Shown: positions 31,457 through 48,782 of the stretch, piece after piece
How the letters are laid out: each line of letters opens with the position of its first letter
Position numbering within the stretch: position 1 is the stretch's first letter
Assembly (NCBI GenBank): GCA_963777315.1
Contig: CAVZQC010000001.1
Coordinates: 192,001 to 256,000, forward strand
Direction: 5' to 3'
Source of the DNA: Vulcanimicrobiota bacterium
GTDB taxonomy: Bacteria > Vulcanimicrobiota > Vulcanimicrobiia > Vulcanimicrobiales > Vulcanimicrobiaceae
Length of the DNA: 64,000 nt
The notes under the pieces: generated by a model
Databases searched by the model: none
What the model saw: the letters and a program-made list of their open reading frames with translations, nothing else
Told to the model about the DNA's origin: nothing
Made by a program: the position numbers and the translations under genes

Positions 31457-31565
31457 ACATCGGCAAGACATTCGTCCGCAGCTCCCTCAGAGATAGACGA
31501 ACGAGGGCAAACGGCCGGACAAAAGGGGGTGGTCGTCGTTAGTACAGACAGTAACACGATGATTG

Positions 31566-31600
31566 GAGGTGCCGCGCGTTAGCGCGGCACCTTCTTTTTT
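31566..31600 (+). terminator. Rho-independent terminator
   Basis: gaggtgccgcgc-gtta-gcgcggcacctt followed by a T-tract. Confidence 0.9.
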
Positions 31601-31651
31601 GTTCGCGGGCGCTACCAGGGGAACGGACGAACGCGGTTAACTTTTTCAAAG

Positions 31652-33304
31652 GTGGCCACACCGCTGAACGACCCGCGTCTCACCGCCATTCCCGACGTTC
31701 ATGGGCACGCAAAGGGCGAACACAAACCCTTTGTCGAGGAACGTCCCATCGCATACTCCGCCCGCATGCTGTTCTTGTGGTTCTATCATGCGTGCCAGCG
31801 CGGAGCTCCGCTCTTCCTGATGGTCAGCGACCACATCAATTACCTCACCTTTGAAGATCCCGGCGCGGTCCATACGGTGCGCCGCGCGCTCAAACTTGCG
31901 CAAGCCGGCGACCTGTACGGGGCGGCAGAGACCGCCGGCGTCGAAGTCGGGCACGCGCACGTCGTTTCGCAGGCAATGCGCCGCGGGATGCGCTTTTCCA
32001 TCGGCGCCGAGCTCGACAACGATCCGCGAGCCAGGCCCGACGCGCAGAACATCGTGGACGCCATGCGCCCGGACGGTCTGATTCGCTCGGTGCATTTCCT
32101 GACGATCGAGCACCCCGAGAAAGGCCCGGACTGGCAATGGCCGTTCGACAACCCCGAGTTCAAGGATCTTTACGACGCGATCGGCACCGAGCGCGTTTGG
32201 GAACTCTACGTGGCCAAGCTGCTCGACGACGTCGAAAAGCTTCCCGGGCACATCGTGGGCCACTTCTACGTTCCTGCGACGTTCGGGCATTGGCCCGCTG
32301 CCGCACGGTTGGAACAGTATGAGGACCGGCTGCTGGACGCATGCGCGGCGCGCGGAATGGCCGTCGAGATCAACACGCGGTTTCTCTACCGCGACAATCC
32401 CGAAGAGCTCAAGCAGAAATATCGCGGCGCGCTTGCGCGGCTGATGCGCAAAGCCAAAGCCCGAGGCGTCGGCATCGCCATCGGCTCGGACGCTCATAGC
32501 CCCAAGGATCAGGGCAACGCATTTGGTTCGGTTCTCAAAATGCTCGACGAGGCGAAGATCAACGAGATCGTGTTCCCCGTCGGCGGCCGCTTGGCGCGCG
32601 TCGCGCTGCGCGCCACCAAAGAGCATTTGCAAAAGATCAAAGCGCAAGAACCGCTGCCTGCGCCGGGCAGCAGCATCAGCGGATTCGGGAGAGCCGAACT
32701 GGGTTTACCCGAGCGCGAGGAAGCCCAAGAGCGTGAAAAAGCCGGCTCCCATTCCAAGTCCGGACGCGACTTAGGACCGCGCAAGCGCGCGAGCAGCCCG
32801 GCGCGTTCGAGCAAGAGACCCGTCAAAGACTTGGGCGACGGCAAAGCAAAAACCCTCGAGCCCCCCAAGCCTGTGCCCAAGGGCCGGGTTCGCGCGACGG
32901 CCGCCGCCAAGCCGGTAAAACCGGCCAAAACCGCGCCCAAGAGTTCAAGGCCGGCGCCGAAAGCGCCGGCTCAGGCGGCTAAGGCGGCCAAGCCTGCCAA
33001 GCCTGCCAAGCCTGCCGTGAAGTCCTCGTCAAAGCCGGCGGCAAAGAAGCCCGCCGGGAAAACGGTCAAGGCTGCGGCCAAATCCAAGGCGTCGCGCGCC
33101 GTTAAAGCAGCCAAGGCGCCCAGCCGCCGGAACGCTTCGGCCAAAAAATCCACGCCGGCCAAACGTTCGCCCGCAAAGAAAGCTTCCGGCAAGAAGGCCG
33201 CTCCCGGCAAGAAGGCCCCCGCGAAAAAGCGCGCCGGGACCACGCGCAAAGTTTCCGCGGCCAAGCGAACGGCAACAAAGAAATCACCTTCGAAACGCCG
33301 CTGA
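31652..33304 (+). CDS. PHP-domain (histidinol phosphatase-like) protein with Lys/Ala/Pro-rich histone H1-like tail
   Basis: DVHGH, SDH, SVH, VGH, EINT and GSDAH motifs; AKP/AKK-rich C-terminus. Confidence 0.8.
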   Translation: MATPLNDPRLTAIPDVHGHAKGEHKPFVEERPIAYSARMLFLWFYHACQRGAPLFLMVSDHINYLTFEDPGAVHTVRRALKLAQAGDLYGAAETAGVEVGHAHVVSQAMRRGMRFSIGAELDNDPRARPDAQNIVDAMRPDGLIRSVHFLTIEHPEKGPDWQWPFDNPEFKDLYDAIGTERVWELYVAKLLDDVEKLPGHIVGHFYVPATFGHWPAAARLEQYEDRLLDACAARGMAVEINTRFLYRDNPEELKQKYRGALARLMRKAKARGVGIAIGSDAHSPKDQGNAFGSVLKMLDEAKINEIVFPVGGRLARVALRATKEHLQKIKAQEPLPAPGSSISGFGRAELGLPEREEAQEREKAGSHSKSGRDLGPRKRASSPARSSKRPVKDLGDGKAKTLEPPKPVPKGRVRATAAAKPVKPAKTAPKSSRPAPKAPAQAAKAAKPAKPAKPAVKSSSKPAAKKPAGKTVKAAAKSKASRAVKAAKAPSRRNASAKKSTPAKRSPAKKASGKKAAPGKKAPAKKRAGTTRKVSAAKRTATKKSPSKRR

Positions 33305-33316
33305 GGAGTCTGGTTC

Positions 33317-35377
33317 GTGCCTGATATTTCGCGCGTACGCAACGTCGGCATCGTCGGCTCTCACCATGCCGGAAAAACCACGCTGGTCGAAGCAATCCTT
33401 TCGCATTGCGCGGCAATCGGCCGCAAGGGTACCGTAATAGAAGGCACCACGACCACGGACTACGAGCTGGAATGCATCAATCACGCGCAGTCGACGACCG
33501 TCGGCTTCGCGCACTGCGCGTGCGGGGCAAACGGCGAGGAGCCGATCGAAATGACGCTCGTCGACTGCCCCGGCTTCATCGATTTTTTCGAAGAGACGAA
33601 ACTGGCGCTTTCCGGGTGCGACGCGGCGGTGGTCGTCGTCGACGCAGATCCGTCTCGCGTCGCGCAAACGCAGGCCGTCGTGGAGTTCATCGAGTCCCGT
33701 AAACTGCCGCATTTGTTCCTCGTGAATAAAATGGATCGTCCCGGTTCGGATTTTGCCGGCACGCTGACGGCCTTGCAGGCCTCGTACGGGCGTCACGTCG
33801 TTGCCGAGCAATGGCCCGTCGGCGCAGCCGACGCATTCAAGGGCTACGTCGATTTGGCCGAACGCAAAGCGTATTCGTTCCAGGGCGCCGGCGAGCAAGA
33901 GTCCGGCGTTCCGGCCGAGATTCAGGAAGAGGTCGAGCTCGCGCGTGGTCAGCTGCTTGAAGCTATGGCCGATTTCGACGACCACCTCATGGAAGAGCTG
34001 CTCGAAGGGGTCGAGCCTCCGCAAGACGAGGTGCGTGAAGATCTCTGCAAGGAATGCGCGCACGATCAAATCGTGCCCGTGCTGGCCGCAGCCGCGCTGT
34101 CGGGCCAGGGCGTTGCGGCGGTCGTGCAGGCGATCCAAAAATGGTTTCCGTCGCCCCGAGAAACGCCGCTGGTCGATGCCGAAGGACGGCAAATCGACGT
34201 CACCGACGGCGGTCCCGTAGTCGCATACGTCATCAAGACAATTGTGCATCCGCAGTCGGGGAAAATATCCGTAGTGCGCGTGCTCTCGGGCACACTCAAA
34301 TCGGATGCGACCTTGACCGACATCTCCAAAGGCTCCGATAAGGTCCGTTGCGGCGGGTTGTACCGTTTGCAGGGCAAAAAACAGGAAGCGATTGCACAGG
34401 CGGGTCCCGGAAGCATCGTCGCCATCGGCCGCCTGGAAAACGTTTCCACCGGCGACACGCTGACCGAAAACGGCTACAAGATTCTTTTGCCGCGCGTGGC
34501 GGCTTCCGACCCGGTTTACGCCGTTGCCATCAAGCCCAAAGACCGGATGGACGAAGCGAAGATTTCACAGATGCTGGCCCGGATCATCGACGAGGATCCG
34601 GCGCTTCGTCTCGAGCGCGCGCCGATTACCAACGAATTGCTGCTCCTGGGCTGCGGCGAACAGCACGTTGCCATCGCCGTCGAACGGCTCACCCGCAAAT
34701 TCAAAGTCGAGGCGACGACGGCGCCGCCGGCGATCCCGTATCAAGAAACCATCGGCGCGGGCACCGAAGTTCACGGGCGATACAAACACCAAACCGGCGG
34801 CCATGGGCAATTCGGCGACGTATGGCTGCGCTTTGCTCCGCGCGAGCGCGGCAACGGCGCGACGTTCGAAGAACGAATCGTCGGCGGCGTGGTGCCGCGT
34901 CAGTTCATCCCCGCCGTGGAGAAAGGGGTGCGCGAAGCGCTCATGCACGGCAGCATCGGGGGGTATCCGGTGACCGACGTTCACGTCGTACTGTTTGACG
35001 GCGCGTACCACGACGTGGACTCGAGCGAACAGTCGTTCCGGACTGCAGCCGGAATGGCAGTGCGCGAAGCGCTTCCCAAGTGCAGCCCCGTAGTGCTCGA
35101 GCCTATCGTTCGCGTGCACGTCACGGTGCCGGCCGCGTACACCTCCACGGTCATTCAACAACTGACGGGCAAACGCGGTCAAATCCTGGGAATGAGCCCG
35201 GCGGAAAAGCCGGGGCACGACGTCGTCGAAGCCGACGTTCCGCAGGTCGAGCTTTCACGCTACATCACCGAATTGCGCACTGCCACCCAAGGTTTGGGCA
35301 CGTACGCCTGGCGTCACGAACGATTCGATCCCGTACCGGGCAAGTGGACCGGCCCGAAGGCCGCCGCCGGAGCGTAG
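33317..35377 (+). CDS. Elongation factor G-like protein (EF-G2 type)
   Basis: GSHHAGKTT, DCPG, NKMD, QTGGHGQFG and HDVDSSE motifs; lacks RGITI and the DTPGH His. Confidence 0.92.
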   Translation: MPDISRVRNVGIVGSHHAGKTTLVEAILSHCAAIGRKGTVIEGTTTTDYELECINHAQSTTVGFAHCACGANGEEPIEMTLVDCPGFIDFFEETKLALSGCDAAVVVVDADPSRVAQTQAVVEFIESRKLPHLFLVNKMDRPGSDFAGTLTALQASYGRHVVAEQWPVGAADAFKGYVDLAERKAYSFQGAGEQESGVPAEIQEEVELARGQLLEAMADFDDHLMEELLEGVEPPQDEVREDLCKECAHDQIVPVLAAAALSGQGVAAVVQAIQKWFPSPRETPLVDAEGRQIDVTDGGPVVAYVIKTIVHPQSGKISVVRVLSGTLKSDATLTDISKGSDKVRCGGLYRLQGKKQEAIAQAGPGSIVAIGRLENVSTGDTLTENGYKILLPRVAASDPVYAVAIKPKDRMDEAKISQMLARIIDEDPALRLERAPITNELLLLGCGEQHVAIAVERLTRKFKVEATTAPPAIPYQETIGAGTEVHGRYKHQTGGHGQFGDVWLRFAPRERGNGATFEERIVGGVVPRQFIPAVEKGVREALMHGSIGGYPVTDVHVVLFDGAYHDVDSSEQSFRTAAGMAVREALPKCSPVVLEPIVRVHVTVPAAYTSTVIQQLTGKRGQILGMSPAEKPGHDVVEADVPQVELSRYITELRTATQGLGTYAWRHERFDPVPGKWTGPKAAAGA

Positions 35378-35414
35378 CGAACAGCGCGGTTCTTACTCAG
35401 TGGAGGATTCCTTG

Positions 35415-37043
35415 GTGAAACGTCTTCTGGCGGCCGCCGCTTTGGGCGCGCTGCTCGCGAGCTGTACCCAAAGCGGAACGTCCGGAACGTCGGGTCGAAA
35501 CGCAGGCGGTCAACCCGGTACGCTGCGCATGTCGATTCAGCAGGACGTAAAGAATCTCAATCCGCTGCTCAATTCGAACACCACCGACGGCATGATCGCG
35601 TTTCTGATGTTCGAGCCCCTGCTGCACTCGGACGTCCAGGGCAATCCGGTACCGATGCTGGCCGCACAAGTGCCTACGCTGCAGAACGGCGGAATCTCCA
35701 AGGACGGCCTGACGATCACATATCACCTGCGCAAGAACGTAAAGTGGAGCGACGGCGTCCCGGTGACGTCCAAAGACGTGAAGTGGTCCTGGCAAGCCAT
35801 CGTCGACAAGAACAACAACATCATCTCCACGCACGGCTACGATTACGTGCGCAGCGTCGGCACGCCCGACGATTACACGGTCGTCGTGCACCTCAAACAG
35901 AGATTCGCGCCGTTCATCAACACGTTTTTTGCCGACAGCGACCAGCCCTATCCCGTGGCTCCGGCGCACGTTCTATCCAAGTATCCGAACATCAATCAGA
36001 TTCCGTTCAACAACAATCCCAACGTCAGCGACGGTCCCTTTAAATTCGTGCGCTGGGTGCATGGCGATCACATGGAGTTCGCCGCGAACGACGCTTTCTT
36101 CATGGGCAAGCCGGGACTGCGCAGCATCTACATTCGCATCGTTCCGGACGAAAACACGGCGATCAATCTCTTGCGCACGCACGAGCTGGACTGGATGTAC
36201 CAGGCGTCGATCAACAATTATCCGCAAGCGCGCAATATCCCCGGGGTCCGGCTCGCCTGGGTCGACGTCAACGGCTACGAGTACAGCCAATTGAACGTCC
36301 AGCGGCCGTACTTGCAGGACGCGCGCGTGCGGCGCGCCATCGCGTACGCGATAGACAAGCGGCGCATCGTCGACACGACGACGTTCGGCCAAGAAAAAAT
36401 CGCAACCGAGGATCAGCCTCCGTTCATGTGGTCGCACGATCCCGGGATCGCAGACTATCCGTTCGATCCGGCCAAAGCGCGCCAATTGCTCGAGCAGGCG
36501 GGCTGGTCGCCCGGGCCCGGCGGCATCATGACCAAGGGCGGGCAGCCGCTCACGCTGGTCATGGTCAGCAACAACAGCAACGTGACGCGCCGCAAAAACA
36601 GCGTGCTGCTGCAAGCGATGCTGCGGCAAGCCGGCATTCAAGTGGAGGTGAAGTACTACCCGGGCGACGTGCTGTTCGCGCCGGCCGGCGAAGGCGGCAT
36701 TCTTCAGAGCGGAAAATTCGACATTTCGCTCGCGGGCTGGTACTCGGGTATCGATCCCGACGACGCTTCGCAATTGACCTGCGCGAACGTGGCGCCCAAC
36801 GGGTACAACTATTCGCGGTATTGCAATGCGGAAATGGACGCGGCGCAAAACATCGCCCTGGACAACTACGACCGGCCAACGCGCAAGAAAGCATACTTTC
36901 ACATTCAGCAGCTGCTGCATCGCGACGTGCCGATGATATACTACTGGTACACGCGTCAGATGCAACCCGTCAGCGTAAACTTCAAGGGATTCGCCCCCAA
37001 TCCGGTGACCGAATCCTGGAACGCGTGGCAATGGAGTATCTAG
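35415..37043 (+). CDS. Peptide ABC transporter substrate-binding lipoprotein (family 5)
   Basis: Lipobox LASC; LRKNVKWSDGVPVTSKDV; RVRRAIAYAID. Confidence 0.92.
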   Translation: MKRLLAAAALGALLASCTQSGTSGTSGRNAGGQPGTLRMSIQQDVKNLNPLLNSNTTDGMIAFLMFEPLLHSDVQGNPVPMLAAQVPTLQNGGISKDGLTITYHLRKNVKWSDGVPVTSKDVKWSWQAIVDKNNNIISTHGYDYVRSVGTPDDYTVVVHLKQRFAPFINTFFADSDQPYPVAPAHVLSKYPNINQIPFNNNPNVSDGPFKFVRWVHGDHMEFAANDAFFMGKPGLRSIYIRIVPDENTAINLLRTHELDWMYQASINNYPQARNIPGVRLAWVDVNGYEYSQLNVQRPYLQDARVRRAIAYAIDKRRIVDTTTFGQEKIATEDQPPFMWSHDPGIADYPFDPAKARQLLEQAGWSPGPGGIMTKGGQPLTLVMVSNNSNVTRRKNSVLLQAMLRQAGIQVEVKYYPGDVLFAPAGEGGILQSGKFDISLAGWYSGIDPDDASQLTCANVAPNGYNYSRYCNAEMDAAQNIALDNYDRPTRKKAYFHIQQLLHRDVPMIYYWYTRQMQPVSVNFKGFAPNPVTESWNAWQWSI

Positions 37044-37582
37044 GACCGCGCGACCCTATCGCGCGGATCCCCGATCTGAACTGGCTGCGCAAAGTCATCG
37101 TGGAGCGCGCCCTTACCCGGGGTGACTACGTTCTGTCCGGCGGCGCTCGCAGCGACTACTACATCGACAAGTTCAGGCTCTTTTCCGACCCGCAGGTGCT
37201 GCGCCGGATCGCCCGGTTGTTCGTGCCGATCATTTCGGACATTACCCCGGACCTCATCGCGGGCACGGAGCTCGGCGGCGTCGTCATCGCGACGGCGGTC
37301 TCCCAACTGAGCAACATTCCCCTGCTCGCGGTCCGCAAGGAGCCCAAGGGCTACGGCGCGTTTCCGGGGGAATACGTCGAGGGGCCGTACGAGCCGGGTC
37401 AAAAGGTGCTGCTCCTCGAAGACGTAGTGACCAGCGGGCGGGAGCTGCTGGCTGCCAAAGCGCGCCTGGAGGAACTCAATCTACAGGTGACCTGCTATGC
37501 CGTGGTCAGCCGGGGGCTGGCACCGGTGCGTTCGCTCATACAATTCTCGTTGCCAAGAGGGCGGCCCCAGACGGAAAATTAG
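37031..37582 (+). CDS. pyrE: Orotate phosphoribosyltransferase
   Basis: LSGGARSDYYID, RKEPKGYG and LLEDVVTSG motifs. Confidence 0.82.
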   Translation: MEYLGPRDPIARIPDLNWLRKVIVERALTRGDYVLSGGARSDYYIDKFRLFSDPQVLRRIARLFVPIISDITPDLIAGTELGGVVIATAVSQLSNIPLLAVRKEPKGYGAFPGEYVEGPYEPGQKVLLLEDVVTSGRELLAAKARLEELNLQVTCYAVVSRGLAPVRSLIQFSLPRGRPQTEN

Positions 37583-37712
37583 TAGCCGTCCTGAAGCGCT
37601 TGGGCACTAAGGACCACCCCTCGGCAGCTACACTTAACGGTGCGCCCGGTCGATTGCTATTAAGAGGGCGGCGTTGTAGCTTGGGCAGGCAGTCAATCCA
37701 CGGCGTTATCTT

Positions 37713-39500
37713 GTGGGGGAGTTCGCTATCTTGCACGCAAAGGACGCAAGCGCTATAAGAGCGGCACACGCGCCGGGAGAGCATCTCGCTCGCTTGCGCG
37801 CGCTGTGGGATCTTGCGTTGCGCGACGACGCGACCCAAACTCAAATCGACGGCGTGCTGCGCGAAGCGCGCACGGCTCTGCACTGCGACTACGTTGAAGT
37901 GTGGAACGACGCCGCGCGCCAGCGCATGGCTTACGCGTCCGACGAGCATCTGCCCCGGCCCATCGGTTCGAGCGCCTTGTCCCGCAATGCCGCCGACGAC
38001 AAACCGACGATGTTCTTTCGCGATCCCGGCGAACATACTGCACTGCAGGAAATTCTGCGATCGCTCGGCTGGTCGACGATCCTCGTTCGAAGTTTTCAAA
38101 CCGGCGAGCATCGTTCGACCCTGTCCTTTGCATGGAAGACAGCGCGGCAGACGTTCGTGTCGGAGGTCGAACTGCAATACGTTGATTTCTTGACGCACGT
38201 CGTTTCGCGTCTCATCGAACTTGCCGAAAAGCAGCGGCAAATCAACGATAAGATGCTCAACGACCCGCTCACGGGATTGCACAACCGCGCGGCTACGCTC
38301 GATCACGCGGCGCTCATGCTTTCTTCGGCGAACCGCACCGGCGCGCCGCTGGCATTTCTGTACGTCGATCTCGACGGGTTCAAGGCCATCAACGATTCGT
38401 ATGGCCACGCTATCGGCGATAGAGCCATTGCCGAAGCGGCCAACCGCATGCGTTCGGCGCTGCGCCGGCACGAGATTGCCGGCCGTATCGGCGGCGACGA
38501 GTTCGCGGTGCTGGTCAACTTCAACGAAGACGGCGAACTCGAAGCCATCGCCCATCGCCTGCTCGAAGCGATCGCGGCGCCCATGACGTACAACGGCGTG
38601 GAAGTGCGCTTGAGCGCGAGCGTAGGCATTGCGGTCTTCCCGCAGGACGGTACGAGCGCCGAAGAGCTGCTCGCGCACGCCGACGCGGCAATGTACATCG
38701 CCAAGCGCAGCAGCGGCGCGGGATATGCCTTCTACGAAAGCGCCAAGTACGAGCCGGTACTGCTCCAGCAAGCCGAGACCCGCGATCCCGCAGGCAATGC
38801 GGATCGCCCATTCATCCTGTGCTTTCAGCCCATCGTCGATTCGAGAACCGGCCGCATCATCGCAGCCGAAGCCCTCATTCGCTGGCTGCATCCAACGCAC
38901 GGCCTTCTGCTCCCGGACAGTTCTCCGGACGACGGCGGCCGTTCGAGCGTACCGGCTCATATCGATCGCGCGGTCATCGAAGCGGTCTTCGACAGCGAGA
39001 AATATCGCGAAACTGCGCGCTCGATTCCCGTGCACGTCAACGTGAGCGAAGCTGCGGAAAATTTGTTTTCGGCTTATTCGAGCAGCCAGGCCAACATCGC
39101 GATCGAGATTCCGGAAATGCTGGTCGCCGACGACCCCGAGCGGTACGCCGCGTTCATTGCGCACATACGGGAACGCGGCTTCAGCGTCGGTCTTTCGAGC
39201 TTCGGCAACGCTGGGCTGGCACTGCGTCTGCTAGCGGATTTGCCGCTTGATTTCGTCAAGATCGGTCCCAAGCTGATCCCGGGAAAGCGGTTCGGCGCCG
39301 GTTCTGCCGCTGCCGCGAAGGCTGCGATCAAACAAGCCCATCACTTCGGATGGTCCGTAATCGCCGAAAACGTCGAAGAAGAATCGCAGCGCGAATGGCT
39401 GATCGGCGCGGGCGTCGACGGACTTCAGGGATACTACATCTGCAGCCCGCTCACGCAGCGCGACTTTGCCAACTGGCTACGCTACCGAGCCGCGCAATGA
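37713..39500 (+). CDS. GAF-like + GGDEF + degenerate EAL protein (diguanylate cyclase)
   Basis: DPLTGLHNR, DLDGFKAINDSYGH and GGDEF intact; EAL present but DDFG loop reads SSFG. Confidence 0.9.
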   Translation: MGEFAILHAKDASAIRAAHAPGEHLARLRALWDLALRDDATQTQIDGVLREARTALHCDYVEVWNDAARQRMAYASDEHLPRPIGSSALSRNAADDKPTMFFRDPGEHTALQEILRSLGWSTILVRSFQTGEHRSTLSFAWKTARQTFVSEVELQYVDFLTHVVSRLIELAEKQRQINDKMLNDPLTGLHNRAATLDHAALMLSSANRTGAPLAFLYVDLDGFKAINDSYGHAIGDRAIAEAANRMRSALRRHEIAGRIGGDEFAVLVNFNEDGELEAIAHRLLEAIAAPMTYNGVEVRLSASVGIAVFPQDGTSAEELLAHADAAMYIAKRSSGAGYAFYESAKYEPVLLQQAETRDPAGNADRPFILCFQPIVDSRTGRIIAAEALIRWLHPTHGLLLPDSSPDDGGRSSVPAHIDRAVIEAVFDSEKYRETARSIPVHVNVSEAAENLFSAYSSSQANIAIEIPEMLVADDPERYAAFIAHIRERGFSVGLSSFGNAGLALRLLADLPLDFVKIGPKLIPGKRFGAGSAAAAKAAIKQAHHFGWSVIAENVEEESQREWLIGAGVDGLQGYYICSPLTQRDFANWLRYRAAQ

Positions 39501-41881
39501 CGATGAAGCCACTAACCCGCACGCGGCTCACCGCGCGTCTGCACGCGGCCTCAAAACGCCCCGCGACGGTCATTTGCGCTCCGGAAGGCTTCGGGAAGAC
39601 CACCGCGGTTCGCAGGTTTTTGCAAGAGCATCCGGCCGCGACGCTGGAATTGGAGCTGCTGCGCGAACACGGCTCGCTCACGTCGTTTGCGCGCGGCCTG
39701 GCAGAAACGCTTGCGCCCGTCGCGCCGGGCCTACCGTCCTCGTTCGCGCGCGCCATGGAGTTCGCGTTCCAGTCGTCGCGCGTGGAAGACGAGTTGGCGA
39801 TTTGGTTTCTTGGGCACCTCGATCGCCACGCCTCCCGAACGATACTCATCGACGATCTCCACCATGCCGCGGACGAGCGGATACTGCGGCTGCTCGAGCG
39901 CTTGGTGACCGATTCGCCGCCGGGCTATCGCTGGCTCATCGCGTCGCGAGAGATGCCGGCTCCGGCGGAACGCTGGCTGGAGCGTGACCTTTGCGCCCGG
40001 CCCGTTGACGAGAATGACCTGCGGCTCACGCAAAGCGAGATGCACGAGATCGCGGCATCGATGGAACTTTCGCAGACGCAGACGGCTTCGCTCGAGGAGA
40101 TGACCCGTGGCTGGCCGCTCGCCTTCAGTTTGGGTGCGAGCCTTCCGCGCTGGATCGATCGCCTGCACCAGCTGCGTCCGGCCAGCGCCGAAGGCGTGTA
40201 CGCATTTTTTGCCGAGCAATTCTTTTTGCAGTGCGACGATCGCCTCAAAGAACTGCTGCTCGATACCTGCGTCTTCACCACGCTCGATCGCGACGTCATT
40301 GCCAAAAGCCCATGGCGCCGTTCTTGGCCTGCGCTGCGCGACCTGGCCGCGGACGGACGGCTCGTATCCCTTCGGCGCGACGGTTCGATTCAATTGCGCG
40401 ATCTCTTCCGAACGTTCTTGGAACAGCGCCTGGAGCAGGAAACCGCCACGACGGTTTCCGAGGCCTGCACGACGGCGGCGAATTTGTTGGAGAACTGCGG
40501 GCGGGTAGCCGACGCTTTGCGTTTGTATGCGCGCGCGGGCAACGATGCCGGGGTTCTGCAGCTGTGCGAACGCTACGGGTTCGCGCTCGTCGACGAGGGG
40601 CGCCTGGACGACTTGAAGAGCGCCTTGGCGACCGTCGCTGCCGACGCGGCTGACGGGAGCGCGGTAGCATTGGCGGTAAAGGGGATCGCCGAAGCCAACG
40701 CCGCTCGAAGCGACATCGCGGAATCGTGGTACTTGCACGCGATCGACAAGGCGCAAGGCACCGTCTCGCGAGCCGAGATCGCCTACCGTTACGGCCTCGA
40801 GCTCGTGCGGCAAGGCCGCTTGGACGGCATCGAACTACTCGAGCAATACGTCGGCAAAACGCTTCCGGTAGAACTGGACGCATCGCTGCGATCGACGCTC
40901 GCAACGGCGTACGTGCTGGCCGAGCGATTCGACGACGCGCGAACGATGATGGATACGGCGCTTGGGCTGGTGGACCCATCCGCGTCCAAGCCGCTGCAAG
41001 CCAAAATTCATCACCACGCCGCGTGGGTCGCGCTGTTCACCGGTCAAATCGCCACCGCGCGCAACTGCGCGACGCTGGCAGTGGAATCCGCGCTCGAATG
41101 CGCCATGTACGACGTCGCGGCTCGCGCGTATTCGGTACTGTACAACATTTCGTATGACGTCGAAGACAGCCCTATCGCAACGCTGGAAATTTTGGACCGC
41201 ATTCTGGACTGCGGGCTGAAAGCCGGCAGCGAGCAAGTCCGGCTTTTTGCGCTGCTGGGGAGCATCGATATTCGCGCCGAAATCGGTGACGCCGACGGTC
41301 TGCGTAAAATCGAAAAAATACTCGATGCGCATAGCATCGATTATGCCAGCCGAGCGACTACGGAAGCGCTGTTGCCCGCAGAAGCGCTCACCCTTGCCGG
41401 CAGCGGACGCTTCGGGGATGCGTATAATTTGATTTTCCCCACCGGCGAACGCCAAGTTACGGCCGACCGTAAAGCGCTTCGGTTTTCCGAGATTGCGTTC
41501 TACGCCTCAGCCGCCGGATTCACCGAAAAAGCGAAGCTTGCGCTCGCCGAAGTAGAAAACCATTTGCGGCAAAGCGATCCGGCTTCGCGGCGCACCATCC
41601 GCACGCAGCTCTACTATGCGCTTGCCGTTCGGCTTCTTGGCCGCATCGGCGAAGCGTACGATATGTTGCGGCTCGTATCCGAGCAACGCGATGCGATGTC
41701 TGCGCGCTTGCGCGCCCTGTACGCCTGCGTCAACGCCATTTTCGATCACTGGGAAAGCGCCGATAACTACGATGCTCTCTACGTAGCGCTGCACGAGCTG
41801 CGCGCAGAGCATTTCGGCGGAGTAGGAGCTGCGCTGGCAGCTCTCCCATGCGCACAGGAGCAGATGCAAATTGCTGGATAG
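39497..41881 (+). CDS. MalT-like STAND ATPase/TPR protein lacking a C-terminal LuxR HTH
   Basis: RTRL, APEGFGKTT, ILIDDLH, IASR, LRLT and TRGWP motifs; helical repeat C-half. Confidence 0.8.
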   Translation: MTMKPLTRTRLTARLHAASKRPATVICAPEGFGKTTAVRRFLQEHPAATLELELLREHGSLTSFARGLAETLAPVAPGLPSSFARAMEFAFQSSRVEDELAIWFLGHLDRHASRTILIDDLHHAADERILRLLERLVTDSPPGYRWLIASREMPAPAERWLERDLCARPVDENDLRLTQSEMHEIAASMELSQTQTASLEEMTRGWPLAFSLGASLPRWIDRLHQLRPASAEGVYAFFAEQFFLQCDDRLKELLLDTCVFTTLDRDVIAKSPWRRSWPALRDLAADGRLVSLRRDGSIQLRDLFRTFLEQRLEQETATTVSEACTTAANLLENCGRVADALRLYARAGNDAGVLQLCERYGFALVDEGRLDDLKSALATVAADAADGSAVALAVKGIAEANAARSDIAESWYLHAIDKAQGTVSRAEIAYRYGLELVRQGRLDGIELLEQYVGKTLPVELDASLRSTLATAYVLAERFDDARTMMDTALGLVDPSASKPLQAKIHHHAAWVALFTGQIATARNCATLAVESALECAMYDVAARAYSVLYNISYDVEDSPIATLEILDRILDCGLKAGSEQVRLFALLGSIDIRAEIGDADGLRKIEKILDAHSIDYASRATTEALLPAEALTLAGSGRFGDAYNLIFPTGERQVTADRKALRFSEIAFYASAAGFTEKAKLALAEVENHLRQSDPASRRTIRTQLYYALAVRLLGRIGEAYDMLRLVSEQRDAMSARLRALYACVNAIFDHWESADNYDALYVALHELRAEHFGGVGAALAALPCAQEQMQIAG

Positions 41882-42842
41882 GCAAGTCGCCTCGGGATCA
41901 AACGTGACGCACCGCATCGGAGCGCTGCGGCGCGAGATTTCGAATCGAACGCTCGCGAGAACGCTGCCGCCGGAACGCCAGTCGATTTTGGCGGACGTGG
42001 TGACGAAGCGAACGCTGGATCGGATCGCGGATTGGACGCTTGGCCAAGACGTATCGCCGGTTTTCGACTGGGTGGACACGGTCCTCAAGGAATATCCTCA
42101 GCAGAGCCGCTTGTACACCTTGCTGCCTTCGGCAGTCAGCGCAACGCTGGATGTCCTTTCCGAGGAGCCCGAATCCTTGGCGCCGGCGATTCGCGGCGAG
42201 CTGATGAATTTGCAGCAGCGAATCGACGTCCACATCGGCGCTTTTTGCACGAAGCGCCAAGAGAACGAACTGCGTGCCATCGATCCCGTCGATGCCAAAA
42301 TCGACGAGCTGCTGTTCAGGCTTTCTGCGCAGGATTCGCTTACGGCCGAACACTCGCGATCGGTGGGCATGTGGTGCTGGCGCATAGCCAAGCATCTTGC
42401 GTTACCGCGGGCTGAGTCGTACGTTATCATCCGCAGTGGTTTATTGCACGATGTCGGCAAGACGGCTACGCCCATAGAAATTTTGATGGCGCCGCGCAAA
42501 CTCACCGAAAAGGAATGGGAGATAATGCGCCAGCACGCCGTCCTGGGCGAGCGAATTATTCGGCGGACGTCAGAACTGCGGCAGTTCACGCCGGCGGTTC
42601 GCTCTCACCACGAACGATTCGACGGCGACGGATACCCGGACGGCTTAGAGCGCGGCTCGATTCCGTTTGCGGCGCGCATCGTCGCCGTGGCCGACGCGTT
42701 CAATGCGATGATTGCGCGGCGGCCCTACCGCAATCCCATGCCGCCGACGCACGCGATCGAGGAACTGAAACGAAACAGCGGGACCCAATTCGATCCCGCT
42801 GCCGTTGAAGCGATGATTGACGTCGTGCTTAGTGGCCGATGA
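41871..42842 (+). CDS. HD-GYP cyclic-dinucleotide phosphodiesterase
   Basis: EHS, LLHDVGK, HHERFDGDGYPDGL, VADAFNAM and GTQFDP motifs. Confidence 0.92.
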   Translation: MLDRQVASGSNVTHRIGALRREISNRTLARTLPPERQSILADVVTKRTLDRIADWTLGQDVSPVFDWVDTVLKEYPQQSRLYTLLPSAVSATLDVLSEEPESLAPAIRGELMNLQQRIDVHIGAFCTKRQENELRAIDPVDAKIDELLFRLSAQDSLTAEHSRSVGMWCWRIAKHLALPRAESYVIIRSGLLHDVGKTATPIEILMAPRKLTEKEWEIMRQHAVLGERIIRRTSELRQFTPAVRSHHERFDGDGYPDGLERGSIPFAARIVAVADAFNAMIARRPYRNPMPPTHAIEELKRNSGTQFDPAAVEAMIDVVLSGR

Positions 42843-43254
42843 TCCGCATCAACCAAGAAACGTCGATAGTAAAGGCGCCTGACCCCGGAATACCCGAAAG
42901 CACAAGAAATTTCGGGAGGGCGCTCGCGCTGTCCATGCGATTGGGTCCGGGCAGGGCGCTCGCGCTGTCCATGCGATTGGGTCCGGGCAGGGCGCTCGCG
43001 CTGTCCATGCGATTGGGTCCGGGCAGGGCACTCGCGCTGTCCATGCGATTGGGTCCGGGCAGGGCACTCGCGCTGTCCATGCGATTGGGTCCGGGCAGGG
43101 CACTCGCGCTGTCCATGCGATTGGGTCCGGGCAGGGCACTCGCGCTGTCCATGCGATGGGGTGCGGGCAGGGCGCTGGCGCTGTCTGCTAACGCGGGGGC
43201 CGTAGCGCACACCAAAGCTATAGCACCAAAAACGAGCGTCTTATATGAGGTCAT
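42829..43254 (-). CDS. Secreted tandem-repeat (multi-core) peptide precursor
   Basis: AGGAG SD before ATG 43254; signal peptide ending ALA; 8 x DSASALP in a 12-aa period. Confidence 0.75.
   Translation of the reverse strand: MTSYKTLVFGAIALVCATAPALADSASALPAPHRMDSASALPGPNRMDSASALPGPNRMDSASALPGPNRMDSASALPGPNRMDSASALPGPNRMDSASALPGPNRMDSASALPKFLVLSGIPGSGAFTIDVSWLMRIIGH
42913..43185 (-). repeat. 36-bp tandem repeat, about 7.6 copies, encoding DSASALPGPNRM
   Basis: + strand unit gggcRctcgcgctgtccatgcgattgggtccgggca; contiguous copies without spacers. Confidence 0.97.
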
Positions 43255-43386
43255 AAGGGCTCCTATAATAGCGAGAAAACGCGCAGCGTTATACGCGCTG
43301 CTTGTCATTATGCTATCTTGCTTGGAAGCAGTTGAAAGCTCTCATCGCTATCAGCAGTTGACGGCAGTGGGAACATAGAACTACCC

Positions 43387-43953
43387 GTGATGATAGGTAC
43401 GCGCCGGGCAGTATCTACCGTAGACCAACGGGCGCCGCTCTTACCCGACCATTTCGAGGTATTGCAGCGGCGGGCCACGCCTGCGCTGTTCGTCGTGGAC
43501 AAGCGCTTGCGGGTTATCTACTATCGCGCCGATCCTGCCGAACGGCGCAAAGAATTTCATCCCGCTCATGACGGCTCGCTGCCGCAAGCGATCGAGTATA
43601 CGGTCCTCAAGCTGCTGGCGCAGGCGGAGGACAGCATCGACGGCGTTCTTCGCGGTGCGGTCAGCGCCTCGGTGGCCGTTCGCGTGATCGAGCTCCACGG
43701 AACTCCGCCCGTCTACGCTATTATGGTCGAGCGTTTCGCGCTTCGCGATCACATGGAGACGCTTGCGAACCGCTTCAGCCTCTCCCCGCGCGAACGCCAA
43801 GTGCTCGGGCTGGTCGTCAAGGGGCTGCGCAACGAAGAGATCGCCCAGCACCTGTTCATCTCCAAATCTACCGCCATCTTCCACGTCAAACAATTGCTGA
43901 CCAAAACCGGGTCGCGCAACCGCACGGAAATGGTCGCCAAGATCATCGCTTAG
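43387..43953 (+). CDS. LuxR-family HTH regulator with PAS-like N-terminal region
   Basis: LSPRERQVLGLVVKGLRNEEIAQHLFISKSTAIFHV. Confidence 0.9.
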   Translation: MMIGTRRAVSTVDQRAPLLPDHFEVLQRRATPALFVVDKRLRVIYYRADPAERRKEFHPAHDGSLPQAIEYTVLKLLAQAEDSIDGVLRGAVSASVAVRVIELHGTPPVYAIMVERFALRDHMETLANRFSLSPRERQVLGLVVKGLRNEEIAQHLFISKSTAIFHVKQLLTKTGSRNRTEMVAKIIA

Positions 43954-44714
43954 AGCGAAAACTCCAAACCGTCCTCGGCTACCGTGATGCGGCCGCCGAA
44001 CTCTTGGGCGGCCGCCTGTTGCAGCTCGCGCGGATCGTTTTCGGCTCCGTAATGCGTGAGGAGCAAATGTTTGACGCCGGCCTGGGCCGCCATTTTCCCG
44101 GCTTCTCCTGCGTTCGAATGCCCGCGCGGACGGTGATCGCGCCCGCGTGGCCCCAGCGCGCACTCGCAAATAAAGAGATCGGCATCGCGCGCCGCGCGCA
44201 CGACGTCCGCGCTCGGAGCCGTGTCAGCCGAATACGCGATCGACGCTGCCTGGGTTGAAACGCGCATCGCATATGCTTGAACGTAATGGATCGTGCGCAT
44301 GAACCGGATCTCCAGATCGCCGACGGTCAGCGCTCCAGCGGGATCGTACTCGCGCAAGCGCATCGATGCGTCAAAGAAGCGTTGATTCTCTCCAACGGAT
44401 GCGGCAAGCCCGTACCTTTGCAGCCCTTCTATGCCTCCCGGATACACGTACACGTCCAGCGGAACGGCGCGCTTGGTGGGCGGAAGCGACGTGAGGTAGC
44501 GCAGCGGAATCAAGTCGACCACGTGATCGGCGTGCATGTGCGAAACGATCACGGCATCGAGCGCGGCCGGATCCGCAAAGCGCCGCATGCTCTGCACGGC
44601 GCCGCTTCCGCAATCCAGCGCAATCGACGTTCGGCCGGTTTGAATGAGATAGCAACTGCAGGCCGTGCCGGCGCGAGGCACTGCGGAGCTGGAACCGATC
44701 ACCCGAACGCGCAG
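43950..44714 (-). CDS. MBL-fold metallo-hydrolase (RNase Z-like); start uncertain
   Basis: DCGSG, SHMHADH, YSADT, GHS and LTHY motifs. Confidence 0.85.
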   Translation of the reverse strand: MRVRVIGSSSAVPRAGTACSCYLIQTGRTSIALDCGSGAVQSMRRFADPAALDAVIVSHMHADHVVDLIPLRYLTSLPPTKRAVPLDVYVYPGGIEGLQRYGLAASVGENQRFFDASMRLREYDPAGALTVGDLEIRFMRTIHYVQAYAMRVSTQAASIAYSADTAPSADVVRAARDADLFICECALGPRGRDHRPRGHSNAGEAGKMAAQAGVKHLLLTHYGAENDPRELQQAAAQEFGGRITVAEDGLEFSL

Positions 44715-44725
44715 CGCCGAACGCT

Positions 44726-45181
44726 TTACGGCAGCGACTCGTAGACCTCCCGCGCGTGACCGTCGACTTTGACCTTCGGCCATACCTTGGCAATCTTCCC
44801 CGATGCATCGATCAAAAACGTAGACCGCTGCACGCCCCTGGTTATTTTGCCGTACAAGCTCTTGTCGACGACGACTCCAAACGCCTCGCAAAGCAGTCCG
44901 TCCACGTCTGCAAGCAAGGTGAACGGAATGCCGTACTTGGTTTTGAACTTCTGATGCGAGGCGACGGTATCGCGGCTCACTCCCACGATCTTTACGCCCT
45001 TACGCGTGAAGCCGGCATAGGCGTCGCGAAACTGCGACGCTTCGCTCGTTCAGCCGGGCGTGTCGTCTTTGGGATAAAACCACAGAACCAGGGGGCTCCC
45101 GAGCAGGTCGCCCGTGCCGATCGTTTTACCTGCATCGTCGAGCACGTTGACACGGGGCATCTGCGTACCTTCGGTTAACAT
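44726..45181 (-). CDS. bcp: Thioredoxin-dependent peroxiredoxin Bcp/PrxQ with in-frame UGA (probable selenocysteine)
   Basis: FYPKDDTPG-TGA-TSEASQFRD...GVSRD...RSTFLID; two same-frame ORF pieces; GAGGAG SD. Confidence 0.88.
45021..45040 (-). promoter_or_regulatory. Candidate bacterial SECIS hairpin
   Basis: GCGUCGC-AGUUUC-GCGACGC beginning 10 nt after the UGA. Confidence 0.6.
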
Positions 45182-45297
45182 GGCGCTCCTCTCAAACCGA
45201 TCTTTGGAACGGGAAAATCCTGGACCGGCTCGAGGTTCCCTGCCTCGCCGGCAAAGAGTACCGCACGGCGCGGCCTTTGAATACAGAGCGCAGCACA

Positions 45298-45861
45298 ATG
45301 GAAGCTTCAAGCAGCGTCGGCGCGCACCCCCTGGCCGATGCGCTGATCGAACGGCTGCGCGGGCGCGGCGCGCGCGTTCTCGAACTAGGCGCCGGAAGCG
45401 GCCGCAACACGGCCGCACTGCAGGCTGCCGGTTTCGACGTGCGGGCGATACGCGACGACGACGTGCCTGAAATTGCACCAGGCGATGGAGCGTTCGACGC
45501 CGCGCTCAGCACTCACGCACTGTTGCACGGCACCCCTGCCGCCATCGCGTGTACCGTGCAAAAAACTGCGCGAGCACTCAAGCCGCATGCGCCGTTCTAT
45601 TGCACCTTCTCCTCCAAGCGTGACGCGCGCTGCGGTCGGGGCAGGCGGATCGCCGATGATACGTACGCCCCGCTGAGCGGCGACGAGGCCGGCGTGCCGC
45701 ACGCGTATTTCGACGAGGCCGGCTTACGTGCGATGCTGCAGCAGTGGTACGAAGTCGAGTCGCTGCAGGAGCACGAAGTGGACACTATCGTCGGACGGTG
45801 GGCGCACGCGCAGCCGCGGTCGGGCGCCGTCCACTGGTTTTTGCGCGCGCGGAAACTTTAG
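45298..45861 (+). CDS. Class I SAM-dependent methyltransferase
   Basis: [11 protein letters not shown] motif. Confidence 0.8.
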
Positions 45862-46643
45862 TTCTTTTGAAGAGCGATCATTCCGCGCATCGGACTGGAC
45901 GCGTTCGCGTGCAGCCGCTTTTCCATGCGTCCCGATAAAAACGCCATCCGGCCCGCCTGCACGGCGTATTGCATCGCGCGCGCCATCTGCACCGGATCCC
46001 CGGCGCAGGCGATCCCGGTGTTCATGAGCACTGCATCGGCTCCCAGTTCCATCGCAATCGCCGCATCGCTCGCCGTGCCGACGCCGGCATCCACGATGAC
46101 GGGCACCGTGGCGCGCTCTTTGATGATCGTCAAAGAATACGGATTGCACACGCCCAACCCGCTTCCGATGGGCGCCGCCAGCGGCATCACGGCGGCGCAG
46201 CCTTCTTCTTCGAGCTGTTTGCACGCGACCGGATCGTCGACCACGTACGGCAGCACCGTGAATCCCTCTTTGACCAGCTGCGCTGCGGCGGAAAGCGTTT
46301 CCCGGGTGTCGGGATACAGCGTGCGAGTATCGCCGATCACTTCGAGTTTGATCAAATCCGTGGCAAGCAGCTCGCGCGCCAGCTGAGCGGTCAGAACCGC
46401 TTCCTTTGCGGTAAAGCAGCCCGCGGTGTTCGGCAAGATCGTGTACGCGTCGCGATCGATGTAGTCGAGCATCGTCTTACCGCTTGCGTCGTCGAAATTG
46501 ATGCGCCGAATAGCGACGGTCACCATTTGCGCGCCGGAGGCTCGATGCGCCGCCTGCATCGTCTGGAGCGACGGGTACTTGGCGGTCCCGACGATGAGGC
46601 GTGAGGAGAATGTGGATGTTCCGATCTGCAGTACGTCGTTCAT
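45858..46643 (-). CDS. thiG: Thiazole synthase
   Basis: [22 protein letters not shown] and DAGVG motifs. Confidence 0.96.
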
Positions 46644-46659
46644 TGTGTCCTCGATGCGG

Positions 46660-46860
46660 TCAGCCGCCCGCCGCGGCTTTGATGATTTCGATGCGATCGC
46701 CCTCTCGAACGAGCTCTTCGTCGTATGCGGAACGGCGCACGACGCAGTCGTTCTTCGCAACGGCGATTCCCTTTGGCGGCGCTTGCACGCGCACGAGCAG
46801 CTGCGACACGGTCATGCCGTCGGGCAATTCCTGTTCGCTGCCGTTGATCGAAGCTTTCAC
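46660..46860 (-). CDS. thiS: Sulfur carrier protein ThiS
   Basis: 66 aa; ING, IAVAKN and EGDRIEII; C-terminal GG. Confidence 0.93.
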
Positions 46861-46874
46861 CGACCCGAGTTTCG

Positions 46875-48005
46875 CTACGCGATGCCCGCTTTCGTTCCCA
46901 GGCGCGCAAGATCGAACGCAACGAGGCGCTCGGGGCTCGCTCCCTCCACGACGTCGGCCAGCAAGCGCGCGGTGATGGGCGCGAGCAGAATGCCGTTGCG
47001 ATAGTGTCCGGCGGCCAGGAAATAGCCTTGCCGAAGCGTTGCGCCCAGGAAGGGCCTGCCGTCCGGCGTTGCCGGACGCAGCCCTGCCCACATTTCGCTC
47101 ACCGCAAAGTCTTGTAACGCAGGGGCTGCCGCAACGGCCGCATGCAGCAAAGCATGCACGCCGCCCGCGGTTACGCGAAGGTCCGCGACCTGCTCCACCG
47201 TTGCGCCCACGAGAAGCCGCCCATCGCTGCGCGGCACCAAATACGCGCCCGGAACCCATGTCGTGCGGCGCATGAAGCCGGCCGGAATCGTAATGGCGAT
47301 CATTTGACCCTTGACCGGACGCACGGGCGGCACGCATTCCGCGGGAACCCCCTCGATCTCGCCGGCCCACGCGCCGGCCGCATTGATTACCGCCCCCGCC
47401 GGCTCGTAGCCAAGATCGGAGTGCACTCCCAAAACGCGGCGCGCATCGAATTGCAGCCCCACCGATGCGAGTTCGCTGCGCACGACGACGCCGCGCGCGC
47501 GGCATGCGGCGGTAAGCGCGCGCCCCAGTCGACGATTGTCGATTTGGCCTTCACCGTGCACTAACAGCGCGCCGGCGACGTTTTTGCTTAGAGCCGGCTC
47601 GGCCAGCAGCGTGTGATTCCGATCGAGCAGCGTTGCCGAATTGCCGGCGGCGTGCAGTTCGGCGCACCGCCGCGCCAGCGCAGCATACTGCTCGGCTGAA
47701 TACGCCGCGTGCAGAATGCCGTCCAGCCGCAAATGCGGATCGACGCCGCCGGCGTCGCGCACGGACTGCGCAAAAGCCGGATACAGCGCCAGCGACTGCC
47801 CGCACAGCGACTGCAGCGGTTCGTCGGGCAAACTCTCGGTCAACGGAGCCAGCATTCCGGCTGCGGCCCACGATGCGGCTCGCGCCGGTTCTGCCGTATC
47901 GTAGACGCGCACGGCTGCGCCGCGCGATGCCAGTTCGAACGCAATCGATAATCCGATGATCCCGGCGCCGACGATGGCTACGTCGCCGGAAGCGCGCGAC
48001 TGCAT
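46875..48005 (-). CDS. thiO: Glycine oxidase
   Basis: GAGIIG, ASWAAAGML, PVKGQ and GHYRNGILLAP motifs. Confidence 0.93.
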   Translation of the reverse strand: MQSRASGDVAIVGAGIIGLSIAFELASRGAAVRVYDTAEPARAASWAAAGMLAPLTESLPDEPLQSLCGQSLALYPAFAQSVRDAGGVDPHLRLDGILHAAYSAEQYAALARRCAELHAAGNSATLLDRNHTLLAEPALSKNVAGALLVHGEGQIDNRRLGRALTAACRARGVVVRSELASVGLQFDARRVLGVHSDLGYEPAGAVINAAGAWAGEIEGVPAECVPPVRPVKGQMIAITIPAGFMRRTTWVPGAYLVPRSDGRLLVGATVEQVADLRVTAGGVHALLHAAVAAAPALQDFAVSEMWAGLRPATPDGRPFLGATLRQGYFLAAGHYRNGILLAPITARLLADVVEGASPERLVAFDLARLGTKAGIA

Positions 48006-48782
48006 CTATCGCGCCCCGTGCAAAAAAGCTCGAATCGTGACGGGCTGCTCGATTTCGAACGCGGTCAAGGTCATATATCGACCGGTCTTGGCCGACGGAG
48101 CGCTGATGATCGCTTTGCTCACGACGATGCCGCGCAGCACGCCGGCGCGGTCGAATGCTCCGGCGCCCGAATCGCCCCGATCGCAGGTCGGGCAGAACAG
48201 CAGCGTGCCGTAGAGATGCCGTTCGGCGATTCCGGGCGACGCGGTCCAGCTCTTGGCACCGGGATGCCCCATAACCACGAATTGCTGACCCGTGGCAAGC
48301 GCCGCATTGCCCACGCGCGCCGTGGGATATGCCGTCAGAGGTACCGGTTCAACGTATACCAGCGCGAGATCGGCGCGGCGGTCGCGAACGATCCGTATCG
48401 CCCGCCGAACCGTGTGGTCCGGGAAGATGACGAACTTGCGCCCGGCGTGCGCGACGATGTGCTTGGCGGTAAGTATCTCGATGCGCGAGTTGCGCACGCG
48501 CACGATGACGCCCGCTCCCATGTATGCGCTATGCTGCGAAGTCCGGGCTGCAACAATTACCGTTTGCTCGCGCAGGCGTTCGGCAAGTCCGCTGCTTTCG
48601 CGCACGCGATACGATTCTTGAATCAGCCCTGCGTCGATGAAGAGATCTTTTTGCCGAGCTGCGTAGAGGATCAGACCCTTGCCGGCGTCGGGAAACGCTC
48701 GCGCCATCTGCCAAATGCCCTCGCCGAGCAGGCTGAGCACGGCGAGCAGCACGACGAGCGAAAAATCGACCCGGGTTTTCAC
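48006..48782 (-). CDS. Trypsin-like serine protease, membrane-anchored
   Basis: LTAKH, DLAL and GDSG catalytic triad motifs. Confidence 0.8.
   Translation of the reverse strand: MKTRVDFSLVVLLAVLSLLGEGIWQMARAFPDAGKGLILYAARQKDLFIDAGLIQESYRVRESSGLAERLREQTVIVAARTSQHSAYMGAGVIVRVRNSRIEILTAKHIVAHAGRKFVIFPDHTVRRAIRIVRDRRADLALVYVEPVPLTAYPTARVGNAALATGQQFVVMGHPGAKSWTASPGIAERHLYGTLLFCPTCDRGDSGAGAFDRAGVLRGIVVSKAIISAPSAKTGRYMTLTAFEIEQPVTIRAFLHGAR

Follow-up and report, generated by a model that had tools for sequence, protein, structure and literature searches.

The subject of this report is a block of five genes at positions 37,713–43,953 of a 64,000-nt stretch of DNA (hereafter the window; positions 192,001 to 256,000, forward strand, of contig CAVZQC010000001.1, assembly GCA_963777315.1) from a Vulcanimicrobiota bacterium of the family Vulcanimicrobiaceae. 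The block consists of genes for a GGDEF-EAL diguanylate cyclase, a MalT-type STAND ATPase, an HD-GYP phosphodiesterase, a putatively secreted repeat-peptide precursor and a LuxR-family regulator (Table 1), and checks of open reading frames and domains placed all five where an earlier note on this DNA had put them. The genes are tightly packed: the STAND start overlaps the cyclase stop as ATGA, the HD-GYP gene overlaps the 3' end of the STAND gene by 11 nt, and the precursor gene is convergent to the HD-GYP gene with a 14-nt overlap of their 3' ends. The region between the precursor and LuxR genes is AT-rich, as had been reported earlier, with 48% GC over the 130 nt 5' of the peptide gene against about 60% around it. 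As far as comparison of sequences goes, the block is real and conserved as a module, has apparently not been described before and is read here, with a probability of roughly 0.6, as a peptide-controlled cyclic di-GMP (c-di-GMP) switch, in which the STAND protein would sense a self-made heptapeptide and the HD-GYP enzyme would serve as the output.

Table 1. Features of the block with their positions in the window (TPR, tetratricopeptide repeat; NOD, nucleotide-binding oligomerization domain).
Feature	Position	Strand	Properties
GGDEF-EAL diguanylate cyclase, 595 aa	37713..39500	+	N-terminal region, intact GGDEF, probably degenerate EAL
MalT-type STAND ATPase, 794 aa	39497..41881	+	NOD, arm, TPR sensor ~421-785; likely peptide receptor
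Codon of sensor residue I504	41006..41008	+	Val in 6/6 loci with a Val3 core, Ile in the other 23
Codons of sensor residues Y549 and N550	41141..41146	+	549 non-Tyr in 8/8 loci with a Pro3 core, Tyr in the other 21
HD-GYP phosphodiesterase, 323 aa	41871..42842	+	Helical N-terminal domain; likely output
Peptide precursor, 141 aa	42829..43254	-	Signal peptide, 8 DSASALP cores, hydrophobic tail
36-nt tandem array coding the eight cores	42913..43185	-	
Divergent intergenic region, precursor/LuxR	43255..43386		
LuxR-family regulator, 188 aa	43387..43953	+	PAS/longin-like N-terminal domain and GerE helix-turn-helix

The precursor probably starts at ATG 43254, since a GGAG ribosome site is seen in most relatives, which gives a product of 141 aa rather than the 159 aa of the longest open reading frame. 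It begins with a predicted 23-residue Sec-type signal peptide ending in Ala-Leu-Ala, continues with eight exact copies of DSASALP separated by 5-residue linkers and finishes with a 27-residue hydrophobic tail. The 36-nt array behind the copies (7.6 copies, 97% matches, score 490) is by far the strongest among the 10 repeat rows in the window. The tail (42832–42912, minus strand) is equally long in the ten most closely related loci and runs over the stop codon of the HD-GYP gene; it is possibly an anchor, a processing aid or an antisense overlap.

For the comparison with relatives, 163 loci (141 distinct) containing a homologue of the 794-aa protein were collected, with the STAND as the sole criterion of choice. 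Loci orthologous to that of the window were defined by a STAND at least 36% identical, an HD-GYP gene downstream and a minimum of 1.1 kb of further DNA after it, which gave 29 loci after duplicates had been dropped and three more of this type had been left out as too short. A convergent gene coding for a signal peptide plus repeats occupied the same slot in all 29 (the precursors being detected by regular expression in 20 loci, by eye in 4 and from a later fetch in 5), so the linkage of a secreted repeat-peptide gene to the STAND, proposed as a check in the earlier note, held throughout. An automatic filter for signal peptide plus repeat matched 35 times in the 2.83-Mb genome, equal to 0.006 expected matches per 900-nt slot; the same filter, run blind, fired in the precursor slot of 25 of the 29 loci, the other four having been read by regular expression or by eye. 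LuxR was present in 28 loci, the contig of the remaining one ending too early, and a GGDEF/EAL gene was linked in 28 as well, at three different positions. The chromosomal position was stable in the closest clade. The distribution is nevertheless patchy, because a sensor search at an expectation value (E) of 1e-60 matched in 34 of the 348 genomes of the family, about 22 of them with the window type. The wider STAND family was found in 37/61 relatives and in 0/19 genomes of a sister group, most of the homologue records being labeled Eremiobacterota or Vulcanimicrobiota. Homologous cassettes were also seen in records labeled Rhodospirillales, Janthinobacterium, Limnocylindrales and Acidiferrales (L085, L109, L110, L115, L116), possibly as a result of mislabeling, misbinning or transfer. 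Four loci came from genomes flagged as unpublished (L036 and L037 among the 29, L052 and L059 in the wider tally); no conclusion rests on them, and the co-variation analysis described below was re-run without L036 and L037.

The orthologous precursors range from 40 to 189 aa in length (17/29 do not exceed 100 aa). Signal peptides were judged by sequence pattern, and an n-region, an h-region and an A-x-A-type site were recognized in 25 of the 29, with the first core directly following the A-x-A-type site in 25 loci. The conserved unit is a core of 6–7 residues, DSASALP in the window and DSASAVP, DVPSAVP, DSVTAKP, DIPHAMP, AGPKAQP, DCGHALP, DYPIAQP or DSVPAVF, among others, in relatives; the cores are thus lineage-specific, occur in up to 9 copies per precursor, and are identical to the core of their own locus in 119 of the 123 copies from the 29 loci. 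The linkers between them vary freely from 1 to 13 residues, which excludes the 12-mer that had been named as the unit: the multi-core secreted peptide of the earlier note stands as a repeat gene with a signal-peptide pattern, its conserved unit being the 7-mer DSASALP. Core copies within genes show 168 synonymous against 5 non-synonymous differences, the low amino-acid count being partly circular because the cores were delimited by conservation. The synonymous variation among copies shows that selection acts at the level of the peptide, and it establishes the minus-strand reading frame; a 179-aa open reading frame on the opposite strand over the repeat was rejected, as the synonymous pattern fits the minus-strand frame. 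Judged from these patterns, only the short core is under selection, and the active unit is likely the 7-mer. The shortest precursors (40–42 aa; L074, L075 and L135) have atypical signal peptides and Cys-containing cores (DCGHALP, DCAHALP, DCPHALP), with cyclization or disulfide formation as possible consequences.

The STAND protein has the complete MalT-type architecture: a NOD with intact Walker A (PEGFGKTT) and Walker B (ILIDD) motifs, helical and winged-helix domains, an arm and a repeat sensor. The domain scan of the 794-aa protein returned AAA_22 and a weak TPR_12 (below cut-off), with no match to GerE or another C-terminal DNA-binding domain. In fold comparisons with a confident structure model (mean predicted local distance difference test score, pLDDT, of 90.8), the NOD and arm found their best match in MalT (Z 34, root-mean-square deviation (rmsd) 3.1; E 9e-23 to MalT 8BOB), and the TPR sensor aligned to the peptide receptors Rap and NprR with Z 20–21 over about 340 residues (rmsd 5–6). 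The protein is not a MalT orthologue, scoring 88 bits with the MalT model against a cut-off of 537 and matching over residues 6–383 only. The sensor holds invariant polar residues, including N550 in 29/29 loci; in RRNPP receptors such asparagines hold peptide backbones. A complex prediction for the sensor (385–785) with a 36-residue precursor piece (score 0.02, mark 0.32) counts neither for nor against binding. No homologue of 1513–4320 aa appeared at E 1e-40, which is weak evidence.

The scan for co-variation between sensor and peptide comprised about 22,500 column-feature pairs and returned three perfect STAND columns: 549 with Pro at core position 3 (Pro3), 504 with Val at the same position (Val3) and 104 with Asp1. 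Across 29/29 loci, Y549 gives way to L, M, H, C or F wherever core position 3 is Pro and nowhere else, and I504 is replaced by Val exactly when that core position is Val. Co-variation, which the earlier note had also proposed to check, was therefore detected at two sensor positions, both tracking core position 3. The Pro3-549 rule was spotted on the first 24 loci and was then correct for 5/5 later loci, one of which has Pro3. It is robust, because none of 1500 traits in tree-aware simulations reached a perfect column, while the Val3-504 rule is borderline, given 10/1500 perfect columns and 12 features. The coupling of L104 to core Asp1, perfect yet restricted to two clades, was matched in 163/258 simulations and was discarded as phylogeny. 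Independent pairs counted on a quick tree supported the Pro3-549 rule in 6/6 cases (p 0.031). The HD-GYP, LuxR and GGDEF-EAL alignments contained no perfect co-varying column (2–6 mismatches at best), and LuxR, lacking such a column, was dropped as a candidate peptide receptor. Since the core changes in step with the sensor, the STAND TPR sensor likely binds the self-encoded peptide. For evidence from sequence, the support for this pairing of ligand and receptor is unusually direct.

On the output side, 129 distinct loci were evaluable: the 67 STANDs without a tail were directly followed by an HD-GYP gene in 67/67 cases, 54 had a tail of helix-turn-helix length (26 of these with an HD-GYP gene within 1.5 kb), and the rest were 3 STAND-HD-GYP fusions and 5 unclassified loci. 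In-frame STAND-HD-GYP fusions occur in 3/29 orthologous loci, and of 13 long homologues that were taken from the best 150 and scanned, six were also such fusions, the enzyme in some of them following the sensor immediately. The linkage to tail-less STANDs together with the fusions makes HD-GYP the likely output, an effector taking the place of the DNA-binding tail; the suggestion that the circuit acts on c-di-GMP and/or the separate LuxR is thus best supported for the HD-GYP enzyme, ahead of the cyclase and LuxR. In L103 and L149 the STAND has a C-terminal extension of about 283 residues with a weak HD-GYP match (26–27%), possibly a fusion to a degenerate domain.

The motifs of the HD-GYP enzyme are intact (HD, HHERFDGDGYP and RPYR, with the metal ligands kept) and agree with the family motifs HD, HHExh[D/N]GxGYP and RxY[K/R], of which RxYR is given as a mark of c-di-GMP specificity in the available portions of the sources (bioRxiv 2021.11.05.467447, 600031). 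Its N-terminal domain gave a weak, sub-threshold RsbRD_N-like lead in an atlas search (0.79). Active diguanylate cyclases carry GG[D/E]EF plus DxDxFKxxND..GH..GD, and with this set intact the GGDEF domain looks active. The DDFG loop is needed for EAL phosphodiesterase activity; here the EAL motif is present with SSFG at the loop position, and the domain is probably degenerate. The N-terminal domain of LuxR resembles PAS/longin domains (fold match Z about 7, which is middling) and fell into unnamed clusters in the atlas search (0.94).

Three elements on the minus strand of the intergenic region recur in many relatives: the GGAG ribosome site (43260–43263), a TAGCAT -10-like hexamer (43310–43315) and a TGAGAGCT-like motif (43337–43344), the last being a candidate operator 5' of the peptide gene. 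A sigma-70 scan gave no call at the promoter that the alignment had shown in this region, and an Rfam scan of 30000–50000 gave no match.

Put together, these elements suggest the following circuit. The precursor would very probably be exported by Sec and cleaved by signal peptidase I right before the first core. The other cores would be freed by periplasmic or external proteases, possibly subtilase-type lipoproteins like those beside paralogues, and taken up via an Opp/Dpp-type transporter, two steps that are reasonably probable as a pair; components of this type lie outside the block, the source genome holding two oligo_HPY ATPase genes and 13 family-5 binding proteins. With good probability the peptide would then bind in the TPR groove near N550, residues 504 and 549 being predicted to shape the pocket for core position 3. 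MalT is described in the accessible part of PMC6468293 as an inducer-driven ADP/ATP switch that oligomerizes; the STAND would probably follow it in exchanging ADP for ATP and oligomerizing, and would contact HD-GYP directly. The peptide-loaded STAND would activate the phosphodiesterase, so that c-di-GMP from the co-transcribed cyclase would fall as the peptide accumulates, the sign of this effect being guessed by analogy with MalT. Expression of the peptide gene is likely driven by the divergent LuxR via the conserved intergenic motif.

Several observations weigh against this circuit. The signal peptides of the precursors are pattern-based calls rather than SignalP predictions, and LGN, a TPR protein that binds peptides generically, matches the sensor as well as Rap/NprR do. 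On a careful tree of 26 loci, support for the Pro3-549 rule decreased to 5/5 pairs on starred branches (p 0.0625; 7 pairs on all branches) and that for Val3-504 to 4 pairs on starred branches (p 0.125), and 10 of the 12 simulated peptide features, including the variable position 6, had no partner column beyond chance. Among 17 protease-linked paralogues the Pro3-549 rule works one way only: 4/4 non-Tyr cases have Pro3 and 8/8 cases without Pro3 keep Tyr, but so do 5/9 Pro3 cases. In the HD-GYP enzyme the KPG motif is replaced by AxR, with A207 and R209 invariant in all 27 aligned sequences, and Asn278 is found throughout in place of the Asp of two solved homologues compared; because of these two changes its activity or substrate may differ. 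According to the available portions of the sources, KPG binds the second guanine through main-chain contacts (bioRxiv 2021.11.05.467447, 600031), and for this reason activity may survive the AxR change. Finally, the cultured member of the phylum has an outer membrane, as stated in the accessible part of PMC9758169, which is a barrier for a 7-mer acting between cells.

That envelope also favors an unlikely but serious alternative with the same receptor and peptide, in which the action is cell-autonomous: the peptide would be recaptured in the periplasm and report secretion, protease activity or elapsed time. Besides the diderm envelope of the cultured relative (PMC9758169, in the part available), it would suit the many paralogous precursors that are lipoproteins or N-terminal fusions on subtilase-type lipoproteins, and the hydrophobic tail of about 27 residues kept in many orthologous precursors. 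Close relatives differ in their core, however, and up to 9 copies stand in one precursor, as expected for kin-specific amplified signals; such duplications are reported for RRNPP propeptides in the accessible text of PMC11343458. The alternative that the STAND senses the peptide and acts as a split MalT via the separate LuxR, the c-di-GMP enzymes being merely co-regulated, is about half as probable. LuxR accompanies 28/29 orthologous loci, a helix-turn-helix-length tail is present in 54/129 evaluable homologues and a conserved motif lies in the promoter region common to both genes. Against this, HD-GYP follows 67/67 tail-less homologues, a matching LuxR was found beside the window-type clade only, several homologues carry HD-GYP fused at the very position of the helix-turn-helix, and LuxR owns a PAS-like input domain.

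Slightly less probable still is a repeat protein that is no ligand of the STAND, being instead a structural, antimicrobial or modified-peptide product under STAND control, with the co-variation due to chance. The large number of tests (about 22,500) speaks for it, as does AfsR, a STAND-TPR regulator whose gene adjoins a small gene with repeats that it activates (bioRxiv 2026.09.02.748808, as far as available). However, the tree-aware null gave 0/1500 and the co-variation is confined to the STAND sensor, which moreover belongs to a protein without a DNA-binding domain; a modifying enzyme was not found among the block genes, and selection acts on the short core only. An anti-phage, NLR-like sensor with the repeat as a decoy or as non-coding DNA is largely excluded: Avs3, SAMD9 and plant NLRs are indeed among the fold matches of the STAND, but MalT is the best of these, the PADLOC 2023 defense models (one library) matched neither STAND nor peptide, Rfam had no match, synonymous variation marks the repeat as coding and the chromosomal position is stable in the closest clade. 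The peptide-controlled c-di-GMP switch is accordingly preferred here.

This switch works like RRNPP signaling but falls outside the RRNPP family, because it departs in receptor length and gene adjacency, two of five criteria. The accessible part of PMC10075063 lists a propeptide of 10–100 aa, Sec secretion, a receptor of 250–500 aa with TPRs, and adjacent genes. In the window the propeptide has 141 aa and the receptor 794 aa with an N-terminal NOD; its helical-repeat sensor does align to Rap/NprR (Z 20–21), and HD-GYP lies between the receptor and propeptide genes, as in other unfused loci, the two being adjacent in several paralogous loci. With the RRNPP(A) systems of Bacillota (Rap-Phr, NprR-NprX, PlcR-PapR, AimR-AimP), as far as described in the available parts of PMC11343458 and PMC10075063, it shares the pattern of a Sec-type propeptide with a 5–10-residue, sometimes duplicated core, lineage-specific cores and a predicted cytoplasmic TPR receptor, a kind of receptor that in the case of Rap acts via protein contact. 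It differs from them in the STAND ATPase receptor with NOD and arm, the convergent propeptide gene one gene away, up to 9 core copies as against 1–4 reported in the same sources, the likely HD-GYP output and a diderm host phylum outside Bacillota.

The NOD-arm-TPR-type sensor architecture is shared with MalT of E. coli and PH0952; MalT, however, binds maltotriose and has a C-terminal LuxR helix-turn-helix, whereas the present STAND lacks the latter and co-varies with a self-encoded peptide. In the DSF-RpfC-RpfG system of Xanthomonas a fatty-acid cell-cell signal switches an HD-GYP protein via a membrane kinase and phosphorelay, which is similar in leading from a cell-cell signal to HD-GYP and different in having a fatty-acid signal, no peptide and no STAND. 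The AfsS protein of Streptomyces is cytoplasmic. AfsR-AfsS resembles the block in having a STAND-TPR regulator beside a small repeat-containing gene, but AfsR, in the part of the source available, contains a DNA-binding module of the SARP type and switches on the transcription of afsS (bioRxiv 2026.09.02.748808), and no c-di-GMP enzyme is involved there. The literature search, from which most subscription papers were outside coverage, found no description of this peptide-STAND-HD-GYP system.

Downstream of the paralogues that have a LuxR tail there are propeptides of 21–25 residues, short lipoproteins with a single or repeated motif at their end, or lipoproteins of the subtilase family with N-terminal repeats such as DSPSALPG, and 55/141 distinct STAND loci have a protease match within 2.5 kb. 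The source genome holds one STAND of each of three types. The second (G000:C2:150580-154371) has a LuxR-type tail with a frameshift near its end and precedes a subtilase-family lipoprotein with three N-terminal DSPSALPG repeats, one substitution from DSASALP; a GGDEF gene is divergent upstream. The third (G000:C4:295610-299322), also with a LuxR tail, is followed by a 25-residue signal-peptide open reading frame ending in SGISPGTVG and then by HD-GYP, a gene order of the classic RRNPP-like kind in which the receptor is a STAND. In L064 (G010:C42), two HD-GYP genes and two secreted repeat open reading frames come after the STAND, one of the latter with KLPHI/KTPHV repeats.

The block is flanked by a phosphoribosyltransferase gene and a peptide-type, family-5 binding protein gene upstream and by a metallo-beta-lactamase (MBL) hydrolase gene downstream, in agreement with the earlier description. 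Membership of the binding protein, which lies two genes upstream, in the module is not supported: the genome encodes 13 paralogues of this type, the gene at this site is common only to the closest clade, and family-5 binding proteins lie within 4.5 kb of just 12/141 distinct STAND loci, 8 being this single site. Likewise, the MBL hydrolase was rejected as a member, following LuxR in just 1/4 closest relatives fetched. Elsewhere in the window, the gene at 31652–33304 (+) encodes a PHP/histidinol-phosphatase-like domain that continues into a long, histone-like tail rich in Lys, Ala and Pro, and the gene at 33317–35377 (+) encodes an EF-G2-like elongation factor whose P-loop is altered (GSHHAGKTT) and whose position is kept in the closest relatives.

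More broadly, it is somewhat favored that a second family of cytoplasmic receptors for peptide pheromones, built independently of the first, operates in Eremiobacterota; in it, NLR-like STANDs would read kin-specific heptapeptides from their own secreted precursors, and a swap of the C-terminal module would couple them either to transcription (LuxR tail) or directly to c-di-GMP breakdown (HD-GYP). This would explain why screens for RRNPP systems miss such loci, their filter for receptor length being set at 250–500 aa. To our knowledge, hardly any bacterial MalT-like STAND protein has a known inducer; here STAND activation is directly testable, because the likely ligand is encoded next door and can be synthesized, natural receptor-peptide pairs are many and the pocket is predicted. 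Such pairs could become orthogonal peptide-inducible switches. If the proposed circuit is true, it would place quorum sensing by peptides in a diderm phylum, provide a STAND switch whose peptide inducer is self-encoded and link peptide directly to c-di-GMP, and cytoplasmic peptide signaling would reach beyond Bacillota into an abundant, barely cultured soil phylum.

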